A stretch of 33,320 bases of DNA from Craspedostauros australis. Its lineage: Eukaryota. Positions 5,469 through 31,934 of this stretch are shown here, piece after piece (position 1 is the first letter of the stretch; each line of letters opens with the position of its first letter). A program made the translations under genes and the position numbers. Location of the stretch: positions 1 through 33,320 of the forward strand of contig JALAGF010003714.1 in assembly GCA_030167865.1 (NCBI GenBank), in the 5' to 3' direction. The notes beneath the pieces are model-generated. The model was given only the letters and a program-made list of their open reading frames with translations, had not been told where the DNA came from and made no database searches.

Positions 5469-6072
5469 CACTTAATGCAACTCAATTGGAGATGGCTGGA
5501 AGGATGCAGACATGAATGGATTAGAACTGAATAGATACGATAGATGAGTCGATTACTCCACTACAACTCACACTAATAATAATGCTATCATTGTTACGGA
5601 TACAACATATGACGATACACACGTACAACATGGGAAGGCGAAGACGGATACCATTTAACACGAAAGAAGAGGAACAGAACCGTTTCGTCTGCGTTTCCGT
5701 TTGCTTTTCCCATCATCCAGCAAAATGTGAACGCTCGTTCCCCTTGAATGGAACAGTTCGAGTCGAAAAGATACCTTCCTAAGCGTATAGGAGGACAGAC
5801 GGAATGATTTCGGCAGAAACCAACCGTTTCATTCGTCATCTCGTTTTCGTTCATCTCCGTCACATCCATCACCATCGTCATCGATGTCGTCGTTGTCGCC
5901 ATTTGCCTTCTCTTGCGTGAGCATAGTCGCCAAAGGTATCTCCATCGTCATCATCTTGGTCTCTTCATTTGCATCTGCACCCGGAGTTGCCTCTTCAATC
6001 CGCGACAAGTCTCATCCCACGGCCGATACCGCCACCAGCAGGAGCAGCGGCACGAGCATCCACACGGCCGCC

Positions 6073-8208
6073 ATGCCTTCCACGAAGAAGCGCGAGCTGT
6101 TCGAAGACAGCGAGAACAGTAGCGACAGTGATAGCGATAGCAGCAGCAGCAGCAGTAGTGGTGATAGCAATGATAGTAGTAGCAGCAGCAGCGAAGAGGA
6201 AGACCGCAATGGCAAGAATGCCAACAAGCAATCCTCGACAAAGAAGCCATCCATCCTGAAGGTCAACGAATCGTTCGCCAAAGAGTACACATCGCGCAAA
6301 CAACAGCAGGAGCTGCAGAACAACCGTGATCTCGTGGCCGATGATTCCTTCGATGAGGACTCCTCGTCTGACGAGGAAGACGAGGATCTGGACAAGCCAG
6401 AGTTGGATCTGCAGTTCTTCCAGACGATGAACGCGCTGCGAAACAAGGATCAATCCATTTACGATCCCAGCAGCAAATTCTTTCAGGATGGCGATAATAC
6501 TGCCGGGGTTTCCACGAGCAAGACGCACAAGATCAAGGACATGATGCGTGAGCAGATCTTGGACAAGATGGAGGGTGTCGAAACTGCTGTGGATGATGGT
6601 GGTGATGACAATGATGGCACGCGCAGGAGCAGGAGGATCGTGGAGGAGGAAGATACGTCTCGATTCGCGTATGATGAGCAGCAACGCAAATTGCGTCAGG
6701 ATTTGCTCAAGGGTATCAACGATAACGATGCCGATGGTGACAAGGATAGTGGCAACAATGAGAACGACGATGACGACGACGATCTTCTCGTGCAGAAGAA
6801 GAAAAACAAGAAGAGCGCGTCAACAACGACGCCCGATGAGACGGAACAGAAGCTACGGAAGGAGATCAAGAACGCCAAAAAGTCCTCATCGGTCGCCGAC
6901 AAGGACTTTGTTGACCCACGTGGTGAGATCCAAGATGGTCAAGCCTTCCTGCTGGAGTACCTGTCCAACAAGAAGTGGAAGGACGATTTCGAGAATGACG
7001 CCAATGAGAACAACGGCAACACCAATGACGACGACAACGAAAGCACAGCATCATCCACCGACAAGGCCGACGAATTCGAGGCCAAGTACAACTTCCGATT
7101 CGAGGAGGCTGCCACTGCCACGGGAGCCTCCGGTGCCGATTTCTCCATCCGCACCTACGCGCGCGGCAATCAGATGAACACGCTGCGTCGCAAGGATGAC
7201 ACTCGCAAGCAGAAGCGTCTGGCACGCAAGGAGCGCAAGGCAGCCCAACGCAAGGCCAAGGAGGAACAGCTCAAGCGTCTCAAGAGTGCCAAGAAGGCCG
7301 AGCTGCACAAGAAGTTGGAGCAAGTCAAATCCATTCTGGGTCCGCAAGATGCGGAGGCGGCTGCGAAGGAAGCAGCAACTGCCATCGACGAAACGGCGAT
7401 CCTCAAGATGCTGGAAGGCGATTACGATCCCGAAAAATTCGAACAAGCGATGAAGGATGCCTACAACGACGACTTCTACGCGCAGCAGGATGGCGAATGG
7501 AAGAAGGATAAAGATGTTCGCGATGCCATGCTGCAGGATGCGAATGCCTTGGATTCCGGCGTGACGGAAGAAACGTACGCGCATCAAGATGAAGGCGGAG
7601 AAAATTACAACGGCGGGGACGACGCAGATGGCGAAGAATACTACAACGATCAGAACGAAGGCTACGATGAAGACGGTGATGCACAGCACGACACCACCGC
7701 GACACCCAAATCCCACCTCGAGGTCAAACTCGAAGAGAAGGTCCAGGACGAACTGTACAAGCTGGATTACGAAGACATCATCGCCGGTGATCTGCCAACG
7801 CGCTTCAAGTACCGCCCTGTCGAGAAGAATCGTTACGGCCTCAGCACCGAAGAGATTCTCTTCGCCAAAGACAAGACCCTCAAGCAGTACGTCTCCGTTA
7901 AGTACATGGCGCCGTACCGTGATGAACATGCCAGGGATGGTACAGAATTCAAATTGGATCGCCGACGCAGGAAGAAGTTCCGCGATCTCATCCATGCGGA
8001 CATGGACGAGTTGGTGGAGGCAGGTGCTGCTCCTGCCGGTGCCGCGGATGGCGCTGGCGGCGCCAATGCCGAGGAGAAGAAACGCAGCGCCGACGAACCC
8101 ATCGGTGGTGGAAAGCGCAAACAACGAAGGCGGTTGAAGAAGGGCAAGAAGAAGTCCAAGGTGGCGGCGCAAGAAGATGGCAACGCGGAACTGAAGAGCG
8201 AGGCATAG
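6073..8208 (+). CDS. KRI1: KRI1 homolog (40S ribosome biogenesis factor, Krr1-interacting)
   Basis: Motifs FLLEYLSNKKW, FEAKYNFRFEE, TYAR..RRKDDTRKQKR..RKERK..KEEQLKRLK and the C-terminal YKLDYEDII..PTRFKYR.V....YGLSTEEIL.A.D..L.QYVS.K..APYR. Likely start is MPSTKKR at 6073; an in-frame ATG also exists at 5884. Confidence 0.92.
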   Translation: MPSTKKRELFEDSENSSDSDSDSSSSSSSGDSNDSSSSSSEEEDRNGKNANKQSSTKKPSILKVNESFAKEYTSRKQQQELQNNRDLVADDSFDEDSSSDEEDEDLDKPELDLQFFQTMNALRNKDQSIYDPSSKFFQDGDNTAGVSTSKTHKIKDMMREQILDKMEGVETAVDDGGDDNDGTRRSRRIVEEEDTSRFAYDEQQRKLRQDLLKGINDNDADGDKDSGNNENDDDDDDLLVQKKKNKKSASTTTPDETEQKLRKEIKNAKKSSSVADKDFVDPRGEIQDGQAFLLEYLSNKKWKDDFENDANENNGNTNDDDNESTASSTDKADEFEAKYNFRFEEAATATGASGADFSIRTYARGNQMNTLRRKDDTRKQKRLARKERKAAQRKAKEEQLKRLKSAKKAELHKKLEQVKSILGPQDAEAAAKEAATAIDETAILKMLEGDYDPEKFEQAMKDAYNDDFYAQQDGEWKKDKDVRDAMLQDANALDSGVTEETYAHQDEGGENYNGGDDADGEEYYNDQNEGYDEDGDAQHDTTATPKSHLEVKLEEKVQDELYKLDYEDIIAGDLPTRFKYRPVEKNRYGLSTEEILFAKDKTLKQYVSVKYMAPYRDEHARDGTEFKLDRRRRKKFRDLIHADMDELVEAGAAPAGAADGAGGANAEEKKRSADEPIGGGKRKQRRRLKKGKKKSKVAAQEDGNAELKSEA

Positions 8209-11733: not shown

Positions 11734-13777
11734 ATGAGTCCATCACCCCAAGGAAGCAACAACGATCTGGAGCCAACTCCAATCAACGAACAGTTCATGG
11801 CACTGCCCAACGTCAGCGTCCCTGGGAATGGGAACGGCGGCAGCAACAGCAGCAACAACAACGGCATCAACGTCAACCTGGGAAACCTCAACGGCGACGC
11901 CGTCATCAGCAGCGCTTCCAACGGAGTCAAACACGAGGGACGCCCTGAGAAAACGAAGATGCACAGCGTCATGGAGGCAGCCAACGCCCTGACGGCGCTC
12001 TGCGACGAAGACGAAGAGGAGGGGAACAACACCAACAACGGCAGCAGCGACGACAACAGCAACAACAGTCCTCAGGACACCGCTCCAAAGCCTGACAGCA
12101 GCAACAGCAACGCCAATGGCAACGGCGAAACCAGCAGCAGCAACAACGGCAGCCCTGCCCCAGAATCCTTGCCAAAACCGACGAAGCGCTTCATCCCCGA
12201 GCACAAGAAACCAGATGCAGCGTTGACATTTCCCGAAAAGGTCAGTGAGCATCTTGCCAAATTTCTGTTCTTGGCTGTTGGCGACCATGGACACGAGTCG
12301 CGTCCTGATTTGTTGTATCGTGGTGTGATGCTGTGTGATGTGATTGCGCCACGCGGTGGCGTTGCGTGGCGAAATTGCATGAGTTGTTTGCCTGCCTTCC
12401 AACGCCAGCCGGTGCCGTTTCGGGCTGAGTCGCACACAGCTGTTCGCCGTGTCGCACTCAGAAACTCGATGTCTGGCCTGGTACCTGCGCTTATGTGTTT
12501 CGCGAGCCACGATGGTAGGGCGCTTGTTTGTTTCGGAACTCGTTACCGGAGGTTTTTATCACCCCCGATAATAACAAACATCACGACTATGGCGGGCATC
12601 TTCGTGAGCTTATCATGCCACAGCGCGTATTGTCATCGCTCGCCCAATCCTAACAGCACATCGACCATGATGTGCACCGCCCCACACCAGAGTCTCACAC
12701 AATCAATTAATCCCTTCCTCCTTGTCTACCAACTCCCACCGACGCCCTTGTTTCATTGACATGCATCTCTTGCTATGTTGTAACCAACTTCTTTGGCTTG
12801 TTGCACCAATGCATCCGCCGTTGCTTCGCCGACGTGTGACAACCACACTCGTACTCTGACCACAGCTTATGAGCCTCATGAAGTTCGCCGACGATCAAGA
12901 AGACAAGCGCAATTACTGCATCTCCTGGTTGGACGATGGCAAGTCCTTCGTCATCCGCGACCCGGATGGCTTCACCCGCCAGGTGCTGCCCAAGTTCTTC
13001 AAGGCCACCAAGTTCTCATCCTTCACTCGCAAGCTCTACCGCTGGGGCTTCCGACAGGTCAACCGCGGCATCGGCCCCGACGACCCGATCATCTTCGGCA
13101 ACGAGTACTTCCAACGCGACGATCCTGAGCAGATGAAGAAGATGAGGAGCGTCACCGCTGCTTCCACCAGGAAGACAGAGCAGGCCAATCTCCTGCTTCA
13201 ACAGCAGCAGCAGCTTCAGCAGCAGCAGTTCACCCTCAACATGATGGGCATGAACAAGCGTCCCTTCGACGCCACAGGCGCCATCGCCGGCAACGACCCC
13301 AAGAGAATCCTCCTCGAACAGTGGATGCAGCAGAAGGCGATGACCCAGCAGAACATGTACAACCCCAACCCAGCCGGGCAGGGCATGAACCTGACATCTG
13401 CGCTCGGTCGCAACCCCCACTTCAACCCTGCCTCGTTGAACACCGGTGGGATGAAGCCATTCGAGATGATGGGATTCAACAACGGCAACCAGGGAGGGCA
13501 GATGGCGCCCAGCAACCCGCTGTTCGGGTCGTTCCAGATGCAGTCGCTTGCCCAGCAGCAGAACGACAACCAGCAGCAACAACACCATCACCAACAGCAG
13601 CAGCACCTCTTCCAGCAGCAACAACAGCAGCAACAGCAACAGCAGCACTTCCAACAGCAGCATCAGCAGCAACAACAACAGAAGCAACAGCAGCAGCAAG
13701 GCAGCGGCTACCCGGCCACAGCCTCCACCGCTGACATCGTGAACGCTGCCATCAACGCCCTCAAGTACGCTTCCTAG
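11734..13777 (+). CDS. HSF: Heat shock factor (HSF)-type transcription factor, 2 exons (11734-12240, 12866-13777), ~472 aa
   Basis: Splicing AAG|GTCAGT...CTGAC CACAG|CTT joins ALTFPEK to LMSLM...ISWLDDGKSFVIRDP..F...VLPKFFKATKFSSFTRKLYRWGF, an intact HSF DNA-binding domain. Asn-rich N-terminus and polyQ C-terminus. Confidence 0.93.
12241..12865 (+). other. Spliceosomal intron of HSF (625 bp, phase 0)
   Basis: GT donor, branch-like CTGAC at 12856 and CAG acceptor; removal restores FPEKLM. Confidence 0.88.
13553..13699 (+). repeat. CAG/CAA polyglutamine tract in HSF
   Basis: Interrupted (CAG/CAA)n encoding QQQNDNQQQQHHHQQQQHLFQ12HFQQQHQQQQQQKQQQQQ. Confidence 0.9.
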
Positions 13778-15677
13778 AGAGAGAGAGGCACTGAGCGGTC
13801 CGCAGGCCGGTCTGGGTCAGGCCACACGACACCAGACCGCGCTCAAAAGACAAGACGGATGAAGTGGCACAGACACACACAAACAAACAATCACACGATC
13901 GCCACATCACAACTCTTCCATGCATTTCGACGGGGGAAACGCGGATGCATGCATCCGCTCGGTCGCAGGTTGAGGGGGATATCTCAGCCCTCGATCCTGG
14001 CAGCCGAGGGATCAACCACAAGAGCTGATGCACATGTCCTTCATCCACGAAGGTGGTGGAGGCGGTAGCATCAGCGCAACAGCCTGGATGTATACTTTGT
14101 GCAGGGCGCGATGATGACGCAGGCAATGGGCGGATAGACGGATGGAGCGCGGGTGGCAACAACGCATTGGCAGCGATGCCGTGTGATGCCACACCACATC
14201 TGACGTCAACCATGCCTACAGGCATCGTGTTCAATTTGTTTCCATTATAACTATCTCAATTACTATCACTACGCTGTAAATCCACCCTGAGGTCTGTGCA
14301 GATGGTACTTCAAGCCAACAAGGACAATGCCAGCAAGTCTCGACTTCGCTCTGGCCCCAGCCCACACCACAAGCACGCCTCTGGGCTATACGATTGGGAC
14401 GTGGCATGCATCGCACACGTCCAAGAATTAACGATCTAAACTAATAGACTGACTGCATACTCCACGAATTCATCACATCGGTCGGTTAGAGCAGAGCACT
14501 TTGCTTCTGTTGATTGGTGGATGGTACTATTTGGCGCAGAGGAGAGTTGCGCTTCCGTCTGTTGCGCCGGTCGTTGCGCGGAGGACTATCGCCTTCCGGT
14601 TTGGCCAGAAGACCCGCGACGCACGTTGGCGACACAGCAACACGGCAACATTGGGACTGACATGTTACGACCCTGCAACAGGTAGTCTCTAACTCTCTAT
14701 CTATCTATTAGTACGCAGTTGCCGGGAAGTCTCTGAGATCGTTCGCACCATGCATACTCACAGCCACAAGTGTCCACAACGAAATGTTTGTGTGGTACAA
14801 AACTAGTCTTATTCGTAGACTCACAGTCGAAAAGTCAGACACGATCTGCGACATTCCACGGCAATCTTCTTCCCTTGTGCTGAAGATGTCACCCTACGGT
14901 GTTCGTGGTAGGGAACGTACGGGGTTCCGTTTTTGGATCCAGAGTGTTCGCAGACAGGCAAACAGAGCAGGAACAAGGCACTCTTTGCTCGAACTCCACG
15001 AGCACCACCCGCGACGACAAGGGAGGCGAAGAGTCAAAGCGAAACAACACGAAGCAGGATACGAAAGAACACAACAGACAACAAAAGCAGCAGGAACAGC
15101 CCACAGACAGAGAGGAGGGAAAATCAAACAGAAGGCAAGGAGAGTGCCATCACACACCCACACACATAGACATACAGGCATCACCCTCCGTGGCATTCCC
15201 CCACAAGTGAAAGCTTTCGCATTGAGACGTTCGCATCATCGACATCGTCCAACGCCCATTGTCACTCACCATCGTCGGGATCTTGCTCTATCTCTCTCTC
15301 TCTCTCTTTCTGCGGTGATCGACGCGAACAGCAGTAGCAACAGTAGTAGCAACAGCAATAGAGCATCAACAATCTCAGGATCGCAGCAAGAGGAGCCCTC
15401 CGTTAGATCGATCCCCAGCCCACAATCTGTAATCCGCGGTCAACGCAGCACAGCACAGCACAGCGAAGAAACCAAACGTCTGAATCCGTGACCCCCAAGC
15501 ACACAGCTGCAAGCCACAGCCATACAAACAACCCCTTATCGTGGTCGCAGACCAGCAAGAGTGCAAGGATAGAACCCTCCACATCTACGTCCACTACACG
15601 CACATACATACACCCTGCGCATATTAACACACAAGAGTCAATCACAGCAATAGCATCAATCACAGCAACCCTTCGCC

Positions 15678-17481
15678 ATGACGTCCCTTTCCGCTGTGGC
15701 TGGATCCACGCAAGCCACGACCAACGCGGCAACCGCAGCGCCGGCGCTGGCCCCGTCCGATCGTGTTGCCGGTGGCGAAGCCGCAGCTACCAGCGGCAAC
15801 GCTGCCGCCAGCAGCACCACCAACGGAGGTGCCGGCTCATCCGCAGCCGCCGCGACGCAACCATCTGCGGCGCCGCACATGCGCATGGGATCGTTGGACG
15901 ATCCAGAGAACATCTCCTACAGCGCCGAGCGCATCATCGGAAACGGCTCCTTCGGCGTCGTCTTCGAAGCGAAGGTCGTGGAGACGCAGGAGGTCGTCGC
16001 CATCAAGAAGGTCCTGCAGGACAAGCGCTTCAAGAACCGGGAGCTGCAGATCATGCAGCAGCTCGTCAAAGACCCGCACACCAACATCGTCAAGCTCAAG
16101 CATTGCTTCTTTTCTCAGGTACGTTCTTGGCTGCGTTGGCGAAGCGTCGCTGCTCTTCTCTTCTCGCATTGGGGCTGATCAACTGTTTGTGCACAATGGT
16201 CTTTCGCGCGTTCTGCACTGTTTGGTGTTCGCATCAATGCTCTGTCACCACCCTCTCTGTCTCTCACACCCATACCACTCCATTCTATTCGTCTCTCCCT
16301 TTCCATTGCACACCTGCGCATCCATACGCACATGCGTATGCGTATGTGGATTGTATTGTATTGTACACAACCCATACGCATTCATATGCATTCATATGCA
16401 CCCAAACACATCCAACCACAGGGCGAACGGGCTGAAGAGCTGTACCTCAATTTGGTTCTGGAGTTTGTGGAGGAGACCGTGCACAGCATCTCTCGCAGAC
16501 ATCAGCGGCACAACACATCCCTGCCATTGCTATACGTCAAACTATACCTCTACCAGCTCTCCCGCGCATTGGCTCACATTCATGGCATGGGAATCTGCCA
16601 CCGCGACATCAAACCGCAAAATCTTCTCGTCAACCCAAACAACCAGCAGCTCAAGCTATGCGACTTCGGCTCGGCCAAGAGATTAGTCAGGGGAGAGCCA
16701 AACGTGGCCTACATCTGCTCCAGGTACTACAGAGCGCCGGAGCTCATCTTCGGATCCAACAATTACACCACGGCCGTCGATGTTTGGAGCCAGGGCTGCG
16801 TCGGGGCGGAGCTGCTTCTCGGACAGCCCCTCTTCCCGGGCGATTCCGGCGTAGACCAGCTGGTGGAAATCATCAAGGTGCTAGGCACACCGACGAAGGA
16901 GGAGATCCGAACGATGAATCCAAACTACATCGAGTTCAAATTCCCGCAGATCAAGGGATGCCAATGGAAGAAGATGTTCCGCGACTCGACGCCACAATCG
17001 GCGATGGACTTCATCGCGGGAACGCTGGCCTACACGCCCGACAAACGCCTCGATCCCCTGGAGGGTTGCGCGCACGAATTCTTCGACGAACTCCGCGAAC
17101 CAGGAAAGCGATTGCCCAATCACGCAGGATCCTTGCCGCCGCTATTTGACTTTACGGATCGTGAGAAGATGGTGGCCCCGGAACTGCTAGAGAAGGTGCG
17201 TTCCAAATGAATGTGGGTCTCCTTCCGTCATGCGCATCTCATCTCGTTCTATTGCTGTGCTGTTGCCGTCGTCGCAGCAAAGTGAAAGTGCTCAAGTCTT
17301 TGGACTGTGATTTATACCATTTCAGTCCATCATACGCACGAATGCAATCTCTCACATCACTCAAACTGCTCTGCTTTATCAACGACTGTATTCCGTTCAT
17401 CGCACTTCGCTCCTGCAACAACAGCTTCTCCCAAGTCATGTCAAGTCTGCCGACACCTCCGCGACGGCTGAATCAGGATGA
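15678..17481 (+). CDS. GSK3: Glycogen synthase kinase 3 / shaggy-like kinase, 3 exons (15678-16118, 16422-17195, 17425-17481), ~423 aa
   Basis: [86 protein letters not shown]. Intron 1 is 16119-16421 (GTACGT..CAG). Intron 2 is 17196-17424 (GTGCGT..CAG) and gives the GSK3-like tail [23 protein letters not shown]. Confidence 0.95.
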
Positions 17482-19927: not shown

Positions 19928-21611
19928 CTAGCGCTGAGTTGGTCCCGCAGGCTCCTCATTCGACCACTCTCCACCTGCCGGCGGCGACCCGAAGCGACGA
20001 ACTGCGCCATCATGGATGATACGAGGCGAGTATTGCGAAGTTGTGGGGTATGGGTACATGCCGACTGGAACCAAGGACAGCGGGGCTGCAGCGTTGTGGT
20101 CGAATCCATAAGGTCCGCCCACACGGATGAGTCTCATGTTGGGATAGTTTTGGAGGGGGACGAACTGTCCCACGCTGTCCTCGATGTTGGCGTAGTGCGG
20201 ATGGCCGTGCATGTACTGCGGCTGCAACTGCAATGGAGGCTGCGCAAGCATAAGCGGACGCTGATGAGCAGCAGCTTGTGGCATACTGAGCCGTGTATCG
20301 ATTTCAGCCCTCGCATTGATCTCCTCGTTTGGATTCAGTGCAGAGGCATCCTTGGTCAGAGTCAGAGCCGCGGGAGCCCCCTGTGGTGATGGCTGTGACG
20401 ACGACTGCGGTACTGGCTGAACACACAAGGCCTGTGGCGCCGAGTCAGCGGTATTCGATTTTCGCTCGATTTCAACAGCATGCGCCTGTGCCGCATCGGC
20501 CATCATTCTGAGCAGCTTGACTCGTTCTCTCAGCTCGTCGATTTGCTCTGATGCCGTTGCTCCAGCTGTCTTTGTGGCTGCTTCTATGGTGAGAGAGATG
20601 GTACCGTGATTCGCTTTGAGCTGAGCTGTGCTCAACTGCATCGCAGGACTTGCTTGATCTGCGATCGGTTTGGATGCATCTTGTGCTGGACAATGCAGGA
20701 AAGCTGTTGGTATGACATGATGCGGTATGATATGATACCGAAATGTGAAGTGCGCAAGTGTGGTGGATCCAAGTTTGTAGGCGAATTAGCGGTGAGTGAG
20801 TATAAGTGTGCATGTGTACGAGTACGCATGCATGTGCGTGCGCACGCGTATGTCAAGGAGAGACGGGACAGCGTTCTCCTGCACGTTCCGTCGCATTTTC
20901 AGGCAAGGTAATGCAGCTAAGGCGACGGAACTTTCACGGGTTGCGCCGATGTCGAGAGAGCGTGTGTTTCTGGTGAAGTCCTTGTATGGTACCAACACAT
21001 GGAGCAGATAGTATAGTAGTCGGCATGCACTGTTATGACGTACCTGGGCGAGACAAGCTGCCACCGCGCGATGCAGTGCTTTCCATTGCGACGCTTTCAT
21101 CATCGGTGGCATTGTCTTGGTCGCCTTCACTGCCGGAAGACGCCGGCGACGATGCATTCACCGCCATGCCTTCAGCGTCCTGGTGCCGCTTACGCTTATG
21201 CATCGTGTAGGTCCGAAGGCGTTGACACGTCTTCTTCCATGCCAACTCATCTCCAATCTCGTAAAACAATTGGTCCTTTTTGTTGTACTTCATGAATCGG
21301 CCTCCGGACTTGCGGATGGCTCGGACGATCGCTTTGGAAATGTCGGGTTTGCGTGGTTTGGCTGCATTTTCGTAGTCAGAAGAGAGCTTCTTGATCAGCT
21401 TGGCGTACACATTACCTCCCGAGCTGCTCCTGCAGCTGCGGCCGCTCTGTCCTGTCCAAATGTCAGAGTCCTTCAGTGCCGTCACCCCCAAATCGGAGGG
21501 AGGCAATGCGCAATCGATGATCTCAGCTCTCACATCTCGCACCAAACTACCGATCGTCGTCGGTCGGTTCATTCCTCCTCCCATCGACTTGCTGGGCTTG
21601 CGCGATGTCAT
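19928..21611 (-). CDS. DUF6824-like domain protein, probably 3 exons (21611-21044; ~20969-20846; ~20660/20635-19928)
   Basis: Exon 1 starts at MTSRKPSK and contains DSDIWTG..GGN.YAKLI....DY....KPDISKAIVRAIRKSGGRFM......FYEIGDELAWKKTCQRLR, the diatom DUF6824 pattern. Donor GTACGT at 21043. A 74-bp intron to a CAG at 20970 keeps the frame. The last exon (ORF 19928-20641) encodes a coiled coil plus a Pro/Gln-rich tail. The second intron boundaries are uncertain. Confidence 0.7.
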
Positions 21612-23560
21612 GTCGTTTGGTCGTGCTGTCGTCTGCTGAGCTGCTATTACCGTGACCGTGATCGTGGCCGTGATTGTAGCCGCTGCTACTCCTGCTGCCT
21701 CTCTGGCGATCGTGCGCGCGGCCGGTCTAACCACTTGCCTGTCGCTTGCACTTCGCACTCTTGAAGAATGAGGATTCCTCTGCACAATATCTCCACTTGG
21801 TGGTTCAGAGTGAACTCTTCTGAGTTTGTGGAACTGCTCCAACGATGATGATGAGACTGCTGCGGAGAGTATGATATGTGCTCGTATTGCATGTGACAGC
21901 GGACGCCAATGACTGTAAAGTACTTGGTTTGGTTGTGTGGTAGCTGCCAGTTGTTGTGCTGGTCTTGCTCTTGCTGTTGGGACGGTGACAGTGATCGTTG
22001 ATGTGAATTGCATTGTGCGCGTGTGCAGACGTCTCACGCTTTCGAGTGCGACCTTCCCCACCCCCGCGAGTGTGGGATGCTACACAGCGATTGTTCTCAC
22101 CCTCGGAGAGTGCCATAACATGCCTTCACACCTGCCACACACATACCGTGCTCCATGAGGATTGGAGCAGAGGCGGAGCTGCGAGTGTGAAGACATGCTT
22201 GGAGTACTGAGGCAGTTGAATGTCAGCGTTCCTATTTCTGTCCGTCTCACTTTTGTCTCCAACCGCGTTCGCCAAAGTAGCTCAACAAATATCACGAGCT
22301 CGTTCATTCGATTTTGCACCATTAGTTGTTGACGCTGGAAATGTCGGATGTGACTCCAAGGACGACACCGACGTTCATTTTTCGGCTTCTGTTAGTCGCT
22401 CGTTTGCTCGGCTCTGCCGCGTCTGGGCTCTCTCTTGGTTGCTGTCGATACAGATCGTGTCTTGGTTGACAGTTAGAGCAAAGAACAAGACGCCAAGTGC
22501 GCCGATTGCTTTGTTCCTTCCTTCCATGAACGCGAGCCACCTTGACCCGGCCTGTGGTACCCAAAATCCTCTAATTTGTCGGTGTCCCATCCGCAAGTAA
22601 AATAGTTCGAACAAGTATCGCATGAGTACCATGCACATGTGTGTGAAGCCTAACACGAAGCGCGTTTGCGTGGAGTACGTACCAGTTTGCGGAACTCAAT
22701 CAAAATCGAGCCAATCCGGCTGCAGGCGCTCGTTTCGCTCTCCGATTTCAACGACAGCAAATGGCACCACATCGACGATGTTGCTCAACCCTCTCTCTGT
22801 GAATGTCGTCAGAAAAAAGGCCCAACAACGATTGTTTCTCGGGAAGTGTGTGGTTGTTTGTTCGCAGCTGAGAGCTATCATCCCCCAGCACACGTACATG
22901 AAAAACAAGGAAGGCACATCGCAGCCTCCCTGTCCGCGCAAGGCCTGCTGCACCGGACTAGAGTATATATATTACATTACAGTACTTTACTATATAGTAC
23001 AAAACGACATAATCCACTAGCGGATGTCATAAATGGCTGATTCGTGTGCATAAGCGAGTCCTCGTCCAACGCTGTTTTGTTCTATGCCACGTGTGGAGCC
23101 AGCATTTCGTGACATGTTCGCGATGCAGACGAGGCGTGCGCCTTGAGTTTCTTTGTGGCGGATGGTTGCGCCTGTCGCCTCGAGTGGCGAAAGTGCGAAC
23201 AAAGAATCTGGAGGTGGTGGCACAACAACAAGAACCAGGGCACACAGAGAGAGGTGCTCGTGCTCTCCGCACAGCTCGCACCTTCTACTAAAAGATGGAG
23301 ACGAGGTCACTCGTGGAAGCACCACGACCCATGTTTCTGGACGATCTGTCTGGTATCGTAGATACGTGCAAGCGCACATCAATCTCCTGACAATCGGCGC
23401 GCCAACGCTCTGATCCTTCCCGAGACTCACAATGTGGTGCAGGGCTCCGCGATGAGGAAGACTTTACTCTTTGGACCCAATGGTCTGTTTCTGGAGAGAG
23501 ATGCATCCATGCTCGTACCCGTGCGAGCTCCGGATGGCAAGGGGTAATTGTTGCTATCGA

Positions 23561-25482: not shown

Positions 25483-26652
25483 ATGCCGTCTCTGATCGTC
25501 GTACTCCTCTGGTGCATTGCCACTCCAGCCGGGGTGCTGCTTTTGCTGCCGATGGTCCTGGCGGCTCTGTCTTCGTTGATGAAACTGCTGACACCCTCAT
25601 CGTCAACGTCGTCATCGCCATCGCCGTCAATGTCGTCGTCAACGTCGTCCTCCGACGAACTCAAGTACTCGGCCCTGTGCATTGGCAGAGTATGGCATGC
25701 ACGCCTCCTCCCGAAGGTTCACGCTTTCGAATACCCCATCTTCAACTTCACATTGGACTTGGATGAGATCGCGGCCTTCCGAAGGCTGCTGGGTCCGTTG
25801 GGTTGGATCGTCCAGTTCCGCGAATCGGACCATCTCATCAACGGCGAGGGGCTTTCCGAAGCGACGCTTAGTGGCGAGGCACACAATGACACCAACTCAC
25901 TCCGGGAACGGGTCTTCCGATTGATATCTCAAAAGACGAACGGCAAGTTCCAACCGCATGCCACGACGCATCGCGTTGTCATCATGTCGCATCTCTGCTA
26001 CTACGGATACAATTTCAACCCCGTGTCCTTTTACTACATTCTGGAAAAGTCCACATCCCACGAGGACGGCTCGAATGATGCCACACTCAAGATACCGGCG
26101 ATGGTCGCCGAGGTGAGCAACACGCCCTGGTGCGAAATGTACTGCTACGTGCTGCATCCGGATAGCGTCGACAAGGTGCAGTTTCCCACAGACACCAAAA
26201 CAAAGCAGGGTGGCGACGATAACGACACCTTCCACTGCGTCTTTCCCAAGACCTTCCACGTTTCGCCGTTCATGGAAATGGAGTACATCTACGACTGGGC
26301 CTTTGAAGGCATTCCATACCCAAGTGCCAGCAGCAAGAAGCAAATCTCAGTGTGGAATTTGATGAAATCCAAGGATACCGACAAGACCCACTTCCGTGCC
26401 AAGCTGCTGATGGAACCGCATGTCATCACATCGCCATTCTTCGTGGCTTGGCAATTGGTGCGATTTCCGGCCTTCTGTGCCATCATCCAGCTATGGATCC
26501 ACTACGAGGCGGTCCTCCTCTTCCTCAAGGGCATCGTCTACGTTCCACATCCCGAGGGCAGCGAGACGTTTGCCAGCAAACTGATCGCGAACATCATGAC
26601 CCCGTTCTTTGCGATGCGTGATCGGTTCAATCCCAAGTCCAAGACAGCCTAA
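25483..26652 (+). CDS. DUF1365 family protein with hydrophobic N-terminus (~389 aa)
   Basis: GRVWHARLLP..HAFEY, LDLDE, YYGYNFNPVSFYY, VAEVSNTPW.E...Y, PKTFHVSPFM and IHYEA..L..KG....PHP are the DUF1365 signature blocks. Likely ATG at 25483 (MPSLIVVLL); an alternative ATG is at 25342. Confidence 0.9.
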   Translation: MPSLIVVLLWCIATPAGVLLLLPMVLAALSSLMKLLTPSSSTSSSPSPSMSSSTSSSDELKYSALCIGRVWHARLLPKVHAFEYPIFNFTLDLDEIAAFRRLLGPLGWIVQFRESDHLINGEGLSEATLSGEAHNDTNSLRERVFRLISQKTNGKFQPHATTHRVVIMSHLCYYGYNFNPVSFYYILEKSTSHEDGSNDATLKIPAMVAEVSNTPWCEMYCYVLHPDSVDKVQFPTDTKTKQGGDDNDTFHCVFPKTFHVSPFMEMEYIYDWAFEGIPYPSASSKKQISVWNLMKSKDTDKTHFRAKLLMEPHVITSPFFVAWQLVRFPAFCAIIQLWIHYEAVLLFLKGIVYVPHPEGSETFASKLIANIMTPFFAMRDRFNPKSKTA

Positions 26653-27100: not shown

Positions 27101-30100
27101 TCACCCGATTCTGTTCCCATCATCCTGGTGAATCGGCGACGCCGTGAAGGTCAATGGTTCACCATTCTCATCCAATGGCATCTCAAATACCTCCGAATCA
27201 ACGGAAGACGCCACCTCCGAATCCGAGCTGCCCGTAGCTCGGAGCAAAGATGGATAGAACTGAGGCGCAGTGCGCGTTTGGTTCTCGCCGTTGGTTGGTC
27301 CGTGCTGTTCGGGTTGTGTGCGTTCCATGCCATCTTCCGTGGCGGGTGATTTCGCAGATGTATCCACTAGAAAGTCGTTGTGTTCATCGATCGGCCCCAG
27401 AACTGCCGGCGTCGATCGGCGTTCGAGCTCAGGCTTGGCGAGGCGCTTCAGGTCATCGACTTGGACGACAACTTTGCTCGCTGCAGCCTCGTCTTTGTCA
27501 TCATCATCGCGGGATTCTGTCTGGACGTAGGAAGGAGGAGGCTGATCGCGTTGGACATCTTTCTCACGACTGTCACCTTCGTCATCGATACGATCAAATG
27601 AGAAATTTCCCTCTTCGATATCGAGCGAGGGGCTGCTGAGGCAGTCGTACTCAAATCCATCGTATTGTGATTCCTTGGACCGTGTGGCATGGATGCCAAT
27701 GTTTTCGAAGCCTGGCGTGACGTCGCTGATGTCATCGGAATCGTTGTCGAACATGGCTGGGTGGCCCGACACAAACCCCTCCGGCAGGTACACATCGGAC
27801 GAATCAAGCGTAGTTGCGGCTGGGATCTCATCGCGGAACGATTCGGCTCGAAGTGTCAGTGCGATCGATGCGGGACTTTTGGCACCGGTGTTGGCGACGT
27901 CCTCAACATTCCAGTTGTTCTTCAATGTCAGGTGAGCCAATCGACCGGCTGTGGTCCCATTTGGTCTCTCCTCGATACTGGCGTTGAGAACGTCGTCGTC
28001 ATCGCTATCGTCGTCCTCGTCACCGTCGCAGTTATCGTGTTCGATTTCGTCACCACTACCATGTACTGGTTTCGCCTCATCTTGGCCGACCGCCGACCGG
28101 AAGGAAGTCACGTTGCGAAAGATATCCTCTCGCGCGGTCGGAAGCCCAGGCGTGTCTTCGCTGGTCATGGATGCCACAAAGATGGGATCATCATCCGAAT
28201 CTGTGTCACTCCCAAGCACCCGCAGATAGGTGGCAGAAAGCATGTTGCTGAGGACGGGCCGGCCTCCCGTTTCCACATCGGTGAAACTCCCATTGGACGA
28301 TTCGATGGACGTGTCGTATTCGTTGTCGTCGTCGTCGTCGTCAATCTCGAACTGCCTGGGTGGCATGGAGAGCTTGCTCATCGGCGATTCCGTGATATCC
28401 GACTCCATATCGATCATGGAAAGGAGCTCGTCCGGGATGTCATGCGATGGGACGAGCAGTGCTGTGCGGAAGATGTCCATGTCATTGCGTGCGCTCTTTC
28501 CAGGGCTGATGTATGGCGAGACTCTTCCGTCTGCTCCAGCGAAATCCATCGTTTGGGAATTTGCCGGTGTGACCACGAAACTCATGAACCTCGTTCCGCG
28601 GCAATGCGCGCAGTTGGTGGACAGGTACTGCGTCCCAAATTGGTTGTAGTGATAGTCACCATCGTGGCAGCTGCGGGGGTGATCGCCGGTTCCGACGTGA
28701 CGATTGGCATCGTGGGAGTTTGCGGCTCCGAGGACCGGCTCGTGGGTTGTTTTCAAGAACAAGAAGCCCAAACCAACCATCAAGGATACTGGGATGAAGC
28801 TCATGACGAAGATGAGCCCACCACCGAAACGGGTTCCACTTCCCGAATTGGTTTGGCCACCGACGACGTCCGGGTTTTTGCTATCCTCGCCGAAATCAAA
28901 CGAATTCTCGCCGACTCCGTTCCCTGGCGTGTCAGAGTTGTCGTCGGCATCGTTGTCACTGTTCGAATCCTTTTCGTCGTCGATGTCGATGTCGCCGTCG
29001 GAGTCTGCGGCTTGATCAGCATCAGCATCTCCGTCCGTATTTTGACCGTCGGCGTCCGCATCAGTACCAGCGTCGTTGTCGTTGTCTCCATCAGAGTCAG
29101 TATCAGATCCGGACCCAGTGCCACCGTCGGTATCTTCATCACCGTCAACATTGGCATCGGTGTCGGTGTCGCCATCGACGTCGGAATCAAGGTCATTGTC
29201 CGCGTCCGCGTCTGCATCGGTGTCTGTGTCGGTGTCGGAATCAAGGTCGCTGTCCACGTCTGTATCGGTATCGGCATCCGTGTCAGTATCGGTGTCAGTA
29301 TCGGTGTCAGTATCGTTGTCAGCATCTGTGTCAGCATCTGTGTCAGCATCTGTGTCGGAATCAAGGTCGCTGTCCACGTCTGTATCGGTGTCGGCATCCG
29401 TGTCAGTATCGGTTTGAGCATCTGTGTCAGCATCGGTGTCAGCATCTGTGTCAGCATCCGTATCGTTGTTCGCGTCAGAGTCGACATCGATATCAGTGTC
29501 GGCATCACTGTCGGGATCAATGTCTCCGTCCGCATCGTCGTTGGCGTCGGTATCGGTGCCATCATCGGCATCCGCATCGTGGTCGTCGGCGTCGGCGTCG
29601 GTATCGATGTCTGCGTCCACGTCAGCATCGGTATCTGTATCGACATCTGCATCCGCGTCTGCGCCGCTGTCGATGTCTACGTCGTTGTCGGTGTCACCGT
29701 CCAAGTCCTTGTCATCGCCAGTATCCGCATCGACATCAGCATCTGTGTCTGCATCAGCGTCCACGTCAGCATCCGCTCCCTCGTCACCGTCGTCACCATC
29801 TTCTCCTGTCGGTCGGCCATGATGGACATCGAAGAAGGGTGGGATTGGCCACTCCAGGTCAAAACCTGCAAGGGAGGTGCCCAACCATCGAGTGGTGCTC
29901 ACGGTTGGAAAGTTCCCAGCAAAGACCAACTCATCCGTTTCAAGCGCACTCTGGATGAGTCGGAGCACCGATTCCTCGACGCTCTCGAATTCTATGTTGT
30001 CAGAATCTCGCGCCATCAGAGTCATTTGGCCAAAGTACACGGTGCAGTTGTTGTCGTTGTACTCGTATGGGCATTCGTCTTTGTTGCAAGGATGGGCATA

Positions 30101-31059
30101 TGAGTAGAGTGCAGTGGCACGGCAGAAGGAAAGACCGCGCAGCAAACAACAACAAACAAGATAGTGTGAGCGGGAAGGAGAGAGCGTGATCAGACGATTG
30201 ATCATGGACAAGTTTTGGAACGAAGAGAAATGGTGCGGAAACTGGGCACGGTATTTCTCATTCAGAGATTCTCTTTCAGCGATTCTCATTCAGAAGAGCG
30301 TTGGCGTATTCATACTTACAATCGACGGCCCTGTACGGACCAGAGCTGATGGCAGCAAATCCCAGGCGTTCGTCGATTTGATCCAGCTTCCTCTGCTTCC
30401 TAGCGAGGGCTGCTGCCGCGACGGCGGAACAATGTTTGGAGCGTGCCGCACGGAGAAACATTGGAAAAGCAAAGAGTGTGAGATGGGCGGGCTTGGGTCA
30501 ACGGCAAAGGATCTGCAACAGCGTTTCACTCGATTCTGTTGCGCTTGGACGGGGCACAACCACCCGCCCTCGACCTATTAGAGTTGAACTTACCATCGGC
30601 CGGCAGTGCGGCGTCACGAGCAAGACCGCGGCGTTGATTCCCCCCGCACAGGATGGTGCTGCGGCGGACGAGGTCGAAGAGACCTTCCGCAAGGCCATCA
30701 ACGACATCCTGATCCGGAGGGTCCGATGACTCGATCGAGAAGAAATATTCGATGGCGGATAGATGGGCCGATGCGATGTCATCGAGAGTTGTTGCATTCC
30801 CATCGACCTCGCCACAGCCGTCGTCGTACTGCACATCGAGACGCTTCCATTCGAAGTCATCCGGTGCAGTTTGGGATGAGGATTCCAGAATGCGCCCGGT
30901 GATTTGCGTTCGATGTGATGCGCCTCTCAGCGATATCGCTGGTCGGGATGGCGCGGCGTTCATCAAAGAACTCAGCGCATGCTGGGCATGGATGGTGATG
31001 ACGAAGATGAAGACGACCACCTGAAAGCAGGGGTATTTGGTGGATGGACGCAAACGCAT
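27101..31059 (-). CDS. Type I membrane protein with signal peptide, RXL motifs, Cys-containing luminal domain, long Asp-x repeat, TM and acidic cytoplasmic tail; 3 exons (31059-30594, 30412-30320, 30078-27101), ~1178 aa
   Basis: GTAAGT donors at 30593 and 30319; acceptors CAG at 30413 (NAGNAG, alternative 30410) and AAG at 30079. Both introns are phase 1 and the exons total 3537 nt in one frame. Signal peptide includes [14 protein letters not shown]; motifs [36 protein letters not shown]. Confidence 0.82.
28930..29800 (-). repeat. Coding Asp-x (DT/DA/DS/DV) dipeptide repeat, including a 120-bp tandem duplication at about 29221-29460
   Basis: [17 protein letters not shown] recurs with 120-nt period (gtgtcggaatcaaggtcgctgtccacgtctgtatcgg at 29232 and 29352); 6- and 12-nt sub-repeats are present. 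Confidence 0.9.
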
Positions 31060-31934
31060 GATGTTTGGTTTGGTTGTGCCCGAAGGAGATCACGGATGGG
31101 ATGAAATGTCGTTTGCGTTGAAGCAATTTTGTGATGCGGAAGGGTTGCTCATCAACCATGCACATGATGCGGTCTCTTGTACCCAGCATTCTATTGTGTG
31201 AGGGCACTCTCGCGGTACCCCACCACGCCGCCCTCCATCCGTATCCGCTTTCGTGGGGATGTGAGTAGGTACAAGTCCATCAACTCATCATGATGATGAT
31301 CATCAACTGCCGTTCAGAGTGTTGGCGCGTCCGCAAAAGCAAAACAACGTTGTCGGTGATCCGTCTTGCCTCGCTATCTCCCTGTGTTTGCCGCAACAGG
31401 TGCCATACCCATGCACATTCTGTCTTCGCCATACTGGTGGCGGGTATGGTTCCCACTGAAGCGGTCCTGTAACGGTATGATCAGTGTGGGGAGAAATCTC
31501 GGCACGCGCGGAGGATCACTTCGCATTTGAAAATGATCGTTGTAACCGAAATATAACGTTCCAGACACATGAAACGCCGTTCAACTGAAACGTGGCAGAG
31601 TTGACATTCATCGAGTGACGTCGTGGTGGGGTGTCAACGCACGACTCGAGTTGATTTCTTCCACGAGACAAATGTGGTGACTCGCGCTAATCGAAGTGTT
31701 TTTGGCGTCAAGACCGATTTTGGCGCCGAAATTGACACGAAAGGAACGGTTTGGGCAAGCAAAAATGCAGTGGCGTTGGGTGGAGAGACATCAACGTCTC
31801 TCTTTGCGAATGCTCTCACAAAAATTGGATGCTCCCTCGTTCGGATGGAACCATCGAAAGGGCAGATAGCAACACTGTGATCCACAACATTGTTGGCGGG
31901 AACGGTGACACCAAAGTGAGCAACATTGGAACGG

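Follow-up and report, generated by a model that had tools for sequence, protein, structure and literature searches.

Introduction

Diatom silica and animal carbonate minerals both contain acidic proteins whose sequences are simple and whose modes of anchoring differ. Silacidins are small, soluble, phosphoserine-rich peptides that are freed from a precursor at RXL-type sites, and silaffins and cingulins are targeted to silica by clusters of Lys. Aspein, Asprich, and the coral SAARPs are soluble Asp-rich matrix proteins that are secreted by CaCO3-forming animals. The idea of an (Asp-Y)n sequence is said to come from Weiner and Hood, and stretches with Asp at alternate positions are thought to offer a sheet of carboxylates to cations. 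Among the membrane proteins of diatoms, silicanin Sin1, as it is characterized in PMC5525289, is a 426-aa protein with an RXL domain of 30 aa, a 341-aa Asn- and Gln-rich (NQ-rich) domain, 18 conserved Cys, and a cytosolic domain of 20 aa, and its diatom homologs are given there with E values below 1e-50. For the Thalassiosira pseudonana proteins SAP1-3, Table S2 of PMC5647440 gives 17-40 kDa and 12-25% Ser, and in the description given by PMC5647440, the transmembrane helix of the SAPs is followed directly by a 28-aa cytoplasmic domain that is conserved, and silacidins are referred to as acidic peptides of diatom silica. The silica proteomes summarized in 10.1101/2021.09.18.460806 include 18 proteins with a single transmembrane domain, and silica-associated proteins are portrayed in that source as often low-complexity, disordered, and species-specific. 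Membrane proteins that link the lumen of the silica deposition vesicle (SDV), or the strands by which gliding diatoms adhere, with the cytoplasm are presented as few or unknown (PMC5525289, 10.1101/2023.03.06.531300). Here, we analyze a 33,320-nt stretch of DNA from Craspedostauros australis (assembly GCA_030167865.1, contig JALAGF010003714.1, positions 1 to 33,320), hereafter the window, whose minus strand carries, between positions 31059 and 27101, a putative three-exon gene for a membrane protein with a long Asp-alternating region.

The reading that we favor is that of a lineage-restricted nuclear gene, most likely with three exons, that encodes a ~126-kDa type I membrane protein with a tethered polyanion. 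Taken as a whole, we give this reading an even chance. Its parts differ in firmness, and they are presented below with the evidence that bears on each of them.

Results

Three open reading frames join through two putative introns

The minus strand carries three open reading frames (ORFs) in head-to-tail order, at 30526-31089, 30276-30497, and 27101-30289. GTAAGT donors start at 30593 and 30319, AG acceptors end at 30413 and 30079, and joining 31059-30594, 30412-30320, and 30078-27101 yields 3537 nt, or 1178 codons, in which the sole stop codon is the terminal one. Exon 1 (30594..31059, minus strand) begins with the ATG at 31059, which is the first ATG of ORF 30526-31089, and its 155 codons plus 1 nt encode a signal-peptide-like segment together with the beginning of the head domain. 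Putative intron 1 (30413..30593, minus strand) is 181 nt long, reads GTAAGT...CAG, and is in phase 1; a NAGNAG arrangement provides an alternative acceptor 3 nt downstream (intron end 30410). Putative exon 2 (30320..30412, minus strand) contributes 93 nt, or 31 codons. Putative intron 2 (30079..30319, minus strand) is 241 nt long, reads GTAAGT...AAG, and is likewise in phase 1. Exon 3 (27101..30078, minus strand), for which both the codon scores and the open ORF speak, runs to the TGA at 27101-27103.

The two donors carry much of the splice model. Over the window, GTAAGT is found five times on the minus strand and once on the plus strand, while about seven copies per strand are expected from base composition. 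Two of the five minus-strand copies are these donors, which precede the in-frame stops of exons 1 and 2 by 65 nt and 41 nt, respectively; by chance, the two stretches would be expected to contain only ~0.01 and ~0.005 copies. Since two donors at the frame ends exceed chance expectation, we take both of them as real. As a separate observation on the window, GTAAGT is under-represented and skewed between the strands, and GTGAGT is the commoner form, making up 18 of the 24 GTRAGT sites.

Codon usage agrees with the joined frame. A codon log-odds model was trained on the five Pfam-supported ORFs of the window (Kri1, HSF, kinase, DUF6824, and DUF1365), and it favors the proposed frame in all five segments, with scores of 0.175 in exon 1, 0.361 in exon 2, 0.159 in the exon-3 head part, 0.515 in the repeat, and 0.251 in the tail, compared with 0.12-0.57 for the genes on which it was trained. 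In exon 1, the two alternative minus-strand frames score -0.25 and -0.37. The frame of exon 2 is the best of six by codon score, with the peak of the sliding profile at 30420-30331, and when exon 2 is read in this way, no acceptor within 400 nt other than 30079 leaves the frame open. We ranked 19 splice models by summed codon log-odds. The three-exon model is at the top with 49.6 bits, its 3-nt NAGNAG variant reaches 49.4 bits, the model that skips exon 2 reaches 40.1 bits, and the remaining models score 30.4 bits or less, so that inclusion of exon 2 gains 9.5 bits over skipping it. One-intron models are also conceivable, and there are 38 of them.

One gene with three exons is thus the most likely arrangement as judged from the genomic sequence, and the chance that the three-exon model or its 3-nt variant is correct appears to us somewhat better than even. 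The preliminary description of this locus had proposed that the three ORFs are spliced into a protein of ~1178 aa. Its coordinates, its length, and its open frame hold in our analysis, and its donors occur beyond chance, while its choice of acceptors is less certain than that of the donors.

The same ORFs could also belong to two genes, the first encoding a 177-aa secreted protein (ORF 30526-31089) and the second starting independently from an ATG inside ORF 27101-30289. The second product would then have no signal peptide, its acidic region would be cytosolic, and its helix would serve as a signal anchor or a tail-proximal anchor. ATGs such as that at 30289 do lie upstream of the proposed acceptor in ORF 27101-30289, the codon scores of frame 2 are mildly positive at 30300-30181, and the proposed link between the ORFs is drawn from genomic sequence, not from RNA. 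However, the stop of the first ORF and the first ATG of the long ORF are only 237 nt apart, both GTAAGT donors stand at frame ends, the codon scores of the sliding profile are negative in every frame at 30210-30091, and models with a 5' extension of the long ORF reach at most 30.4 bits versus 49.6 bits. In addition, a 14-nt tandem repeat with 2.9 copies (30255-30294, minus strand) lies inside putative intron 2 and covers the first ATG of ORF 27101-30289; its period is not a multiple of three, and we count it in favor of the one-gene model. We consider two genes unlikely.

Asp codons are retained across the acidic region

The acidic (Asp-x)n region of the predicted protein (residues 266-582; 28892..29842, minus strand) is 317 aa long and consists of 43% Asp, 13% Thr, and 13% Ala, with a net charge of -138. 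It contains 5.0% Ser, no Cys, and only 0.9% Lys plus Arg (3 residues). Strict (D-x)n runs with n of at least 4 account for 218 of the 317 residues, the longest having n=43, and the underlying DNA shows periods of 12, 24, and 96 nt. Within (Asp-x)43, the longest of these runs (29153-29410), the GA of the Asp codons is invariant (0 of 86 positions changed), whereas the third base of the Asp codons and the three bases of the x codons vary by 26-56%. Thr and Ala are each encoded by all four of their codons in the whole acidic region. An invariant GA amid varying positions indicates selection on the peptide, not a drifting minisatellite. The reading frame is coding, and the alternate Asp residues are under purifying selection.

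This pattern bears directly on the suspicion that the locus is an orphan ORF in decay or without function, and that it owes its length by accident to a GAY-rich minisatellite. In its favor, no relatives were found in the collections searched, and five of the six frames are open across the repeat, including an antisense ORF of 810 aa; because the repeat opens five of six frames, the length of an ORF inside it is weak evidence. The strict retention of Asp codons next to diverging positions argues against decay, as do the extent of ORF 27101-30289, which is open for 1062 codons with ~630 of them outside the repeat, and the codon score of the tail, which is 0.251 in the sense frame versus -0.084 in the antisense ORF. 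We leave this explanation a very slim chance.

The antisense ORF (27671-30103, plus strand) lies opposite the gene and reaches ~1300 nt past the repeat. Judged by its low codon score over the tail, it is most probably a shadow ORF, cast by a gene that is rich in Asp/Glu and poor in stops.

Type I membrane topology is predicted for the product

The whole product of 1178 aa has a mass of 126.5 kDa, a net charge of -227, and a Ser content of 8.7%. By hydropathy, the protein has just two hydrophobic segments, one at residues 11-33 and the other at residues 603-630. The first falls to a predicted signal peptide (residues 1-25; 30985..31059, minus strand) with three basic residues and a 13-residue hydrophobic core (hydropathy score KD19 of 1.84 for segment 11-33), and the -3/-1 rule, read by eye, suggests probable cleavage after I-H-A at about residue 25. 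The second is a predicted transmembrane helix with a core of 21 hydrophobic residues (residues 608-628; 28754..28816, minus strand; KD19 of 2.37). [quoted passage not shown]

The protein would have ~580 aa in its lumenal part versus ~550 aa in its cytosolic part. The head (residues 26-265, ~240 aa, 26 kDa) contains four Cys and 7.5% Asn plus Gln, and only five Lys are present in the 557 lumenal residues. The predicted cytosolic tail (residues 631-1178; 27104..28753, minus strand) is 548 aa long, with 20.8% Asp plus Glu, a net charge of -73, and several Asp/Ser clusters. Its sole Cys-rich spot is a Cys/His cluster (residues 657-679; 28601..28669, minus strand), located 29 residues past the membrane, in which C-H is followed 19 residues on by C-x-H-C, and which may be a metal site or an acylation site.

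Most of the layout given in the preliminary description is recovered by these analyses. The signal peptide, the single transmembrane segment, and the acidic tail are present by hydropathy and composition, the peptide motif strings that it quoted are found in the translation, and the extremely acidic Asp-x repeat, which it put at ~290 aa, corresponds to the 317-aa region with an Asp periodicity beyond chance. Its type I membrane protein with a lumenal or outside polyanion gains indirect support from the frame, the codon scores, the donors, and the hydropathy. Its "Cys-containing domain" comes down to the mere four Cys of the head, a number not beyond chance.

RXL tripeptides occur at chance frequency

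The whole protein contains five RXL tripeptides, compared with 2.77 expected in shuffled sequences (P 0.14), and the ectodomain contains four, compared with 1.64 expected in shuffles (P 0.066). None of them lies inside the acidic region. Only R-I-L at residues 56-58 (30886..30894, minus strand), 31 residues past the predicted cleavage, is placed like the RXL domain of silica proteins, and since RXL occurs at chance frequency, its position bears little weight. With no RXL and 0.9% Lys plus Arg, the acidic region lacks the build of a precursor that, like that of silacidins, would yield several peptides.

These counts matter for the possibility that the product is an SDV or frustule protein whose tethered polyanion works with long-chain polyamines in the manner of silacidins or SAPs. 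The combination of a signal peptide, a lumenal low-complexity region, and one helix matches SDV membrane proteins as they are described in PMC5647440 and PMC5525289, and the 31 residues between the predicted cleavage and R-I-L are akin to the 30-aa RXL domain reported for Sin1. A low-complexity, disordered, and species-specific character is frequent among silica proteins, and 18 members of the silica proteomes have a single transmembrane domain, according to the account in 10.1101/2021.09.18.460806. The number of RXL tripeptides at chance and their absence from the acidic region speak against such a role, as do the lack of the silicanin features and of the tested SAP features, the mere five Lys in 557 lumenal residues, and the failure of the exon 1 and tail searches to find a diatom homolog. 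We regard an SDV or frustule protein as unlikely.

The preliminary description had pointed to RXL motifs as typical of diatom silica precursors, and their number here is at chance level (P 0.14). The wider link to silica fares no better, because the defining silicanin features and the tested SAP features are absent, the acidic region is unlike a silacidin precursor, and no relative was found. A role in silica is possible, without support from the present findings.

Searches for relatives and the neighboring genes

Single-exon pieces were used as homology queries, the exon-3 head part (95 aa) being compared with Pfam and the PDB only. The three exon translations gave nothing but a noise match in Pfam (M-factor, E 0.17). 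A word-indexed search with the tail (residues 470-991 of the long-ORF protein) found no relative among 8000 candidates of 545-1735 aa, a size range that leaves out the SAPs (17-40 kDa), and the corresponding search with exon 1 found no relative among 1030 candidates of 273-2000 aa. Neither exon 1 nor the tail had a usable match in the ESM Atlas, and none of the pattern matches in metagenome contigs, 590 for the tail and 490 for exon 1, was confirmed. Exon 1 matched nothing at E<=10 among PDB sequences, and tblastn detected no paralog inside the window.

An exhaustive phmmer search with exon 1 against 1.84 billion protein representatives returned four matches at E<=0.001. All four were rejected as tandem-repeat translations, in which one short chance match is multiplied over 4-9 stretches. 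The PDB matches of the long-ORF protein were also rejected, as they involve low-complexity repeats only (circumsporozoite protein and NELF-E). The four proteins matched by phmmer are near-perfect tandem repeats with units of ~30 to 185 residues, and entries of this kind inflate HMMER scores.

The neighboring DUF1365 gene (25483-26652, plus strand) is convergent with the target gene, with 448 nt between the two stop codons, and its product was used for a control search. This search retrieved 1097 proteins at E<=1e-10 among 7999 candidates. Its best match, at 100% identity, is the gene's own 340-aa product, which is collinear with 25630-26649 and comes from a 1451-nt contig in the collection, and the next best match is 58% identical. 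The named matches come from Fragilariopsis (53%), Pseudo-nitzschia (52%), Cylindrotheca (52%), Seminavis (49%), Nitzschia (46%), and Phaeodactylum (42%). By this protein, the organism groups with raphid pennate diatoms and has no close sequenced relative, so a fast-evolving protein is expected to look like an orphan.

The raphid placement also invites the thought of a surface receptor for adhesion or motility, with the head and the acidic stalk binding mucilage and the tail joined to the sub-raphe actomyosin. According to 10.1101/2023.03.06.531300, it is unknown which components of the adhesion motility complex span the membrane, and the ~550-aa cytosolic tail is far longer than the tails of silica membrane proteins. 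However, no adhesive domain such as GDPH or CAA was matched in Pfam, the searches with exon 1 found no homologs in other raphid diatoms, in which a motility component is expected to be conserved, and no known actin- or myosin-binding motif was identified. The chance of such a receptor is slim.

Pfam matches also identify four further genes in the window, namely, those for Kri1 (5791-8208, plus strand), an HSF-type DNA-binding protein (12860-13777, plus strand), a protein kinase (15407-17210, plus strand), and a DUF6824 protein (21033-22079, minus strand). The kinase is spread over ORFs in three frames and thus probably has introns.

Discussion

In the reading that we favor, the protein would consist of a cleavable signal peptide, a head of ~240 aa, a membrane-proximal Asp-alternating stretch of ~320 aa, one helix, and an acidic, probably disordered, cytosolic tail of ~550 aa. 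This layout would hold a polyanion of about -138 charges within a few nanometers of the lumenal or outer face of the membrane. With a high capacity and a low affinity, the tethered polyanion might bind cations such as Ca2+, other metal ions, or polyamines, and the long tail might serve in sorting or connect the protein with partners in the cytosol. Candidate compartments are the SDV, the cell surface, and an endomembrane that stores Ca2+.

Several points weigh against this reading and temper our confidence in it. The splice junctions are drawn from genomic sequence and codon scores, and the acceptors are putative; with both donors fixed, 17 acceptor combinations leave the frame open, and the acceptor of intron 2 is an AAG. 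The ranking of the 19 splice models was obtained with a small codon model whose training set included the tail of the target gene itself. Signal peptide and transmembrane helix are both readings of hydropathy, not calls of dedicated predictors, and cation binding is read from composition alone. AlphaFold2 in single-sequence mode gave predicted local distance difference test (pLDDT) values of 38.6 for exon 1 and 37.0 for 201 aa around the membrane, which are too low to support a fold search. With exon 1 as the query, the exhaustive search missed even the organism's own protein, although the product of the neighboring DUF1365 gene is present, and this implies that the gene was either not called or not expressed in that data set. 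We regard the absence of the exon 1 protein as mild evidence against expression in that data set.

A bolder version of the favored reading would make the protein a lumen-to-cytoskeleton coupler, either at the SDV or, within the adhesion motility complex, at the membrane of the raphe. A carboxylate sheet near the membrane would organize polyamines or Ca2+, and the tail would transmit position or force. We think that this is quite unlikely. If it were true, a tethered (Asp-x)n stalk adjoining the membrane would be a new design for a coupler of this kind, which is called for by models of diatom morphogenesis and of which none has been identified so far. The combination of a polyaspartate-like tethered stalk with a very long cytosolic tail would make the protein a candidate for tagging, provided that the species is open to transformation. 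As it stands, the gene is another species-restricted, low-complexity diatom gene, and its chief practical use is to illustrate how a multi-exon gene falls into three pieces when it is viewed through its ORFs. Overall, the observation is sound, the gene model is plausible and unproven, and the silica interpretation is unsupported.

Comparison with known systems places the predicted protein between several families. With silicanin Sin1, as described in PMC5525289, it shares the predicted type I layout and, behind the signal peptide, ~30 aa that run up to an RXL tripeptide. Unlike Sin1, its head has 7.5% Asn plus Gln and four Cys in place of an NQ-rich domain with 18 Cys, its helix is not C-terminal and is followed by a 548-aa tail in place of a cytosolic domain of ~20 aa, and the searches with exon 1, with the tail, and in Pfam yielded no homolog, silicanins included. 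With SAP1-3, in the account of PMC5647440, it has in common a signal peptide with an RXL after it, a low-complexity lumenal region, one helix, and a cytosolic C-terminal part, and SAP1 and SAP3 also share its acidic pI. It departs from the SAPs in size (126 kDa), in Ser content (8.7%), in having (Asp-x)n in place of a Ser-rich region, and in its ~550-aa tail, the SAPs being small proteins in which the lumenal part is the longer and the cytosolic part the shorter; this comparison covers size, Ser content, and layout, and the 28-aa cytoplasmic domain of the SAPs lies outside it.

A strongly polyanionic lumenal sequence and a possible interaction with polyamines are reminiscent of silacidins, from which the predicted protein differs in that its polyanion is based on Asp, Thr, and Ala, is tethered to the membrane, and is without RXL. 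Unlike the precursors of silaffins, silacidins, and cingulins, it has no repeat units split by RXL or basic sites, and its lumenal part is poor in Lys, with the five residues noted above. The Asp-rich matrix proteins of calcifiers are a different case. The predicted protein is unlike them in that it spans the membrane, has a large cytosolic tail, and belongs to an alga that forms silica, and what is shared is composition, not homology. However, these proteins also have a long, Asp-rich, low-complexity stretch in which Asp often stands at alternate positions, and they are, as an analogy in principle, the closest likeness to the protein predicted here.

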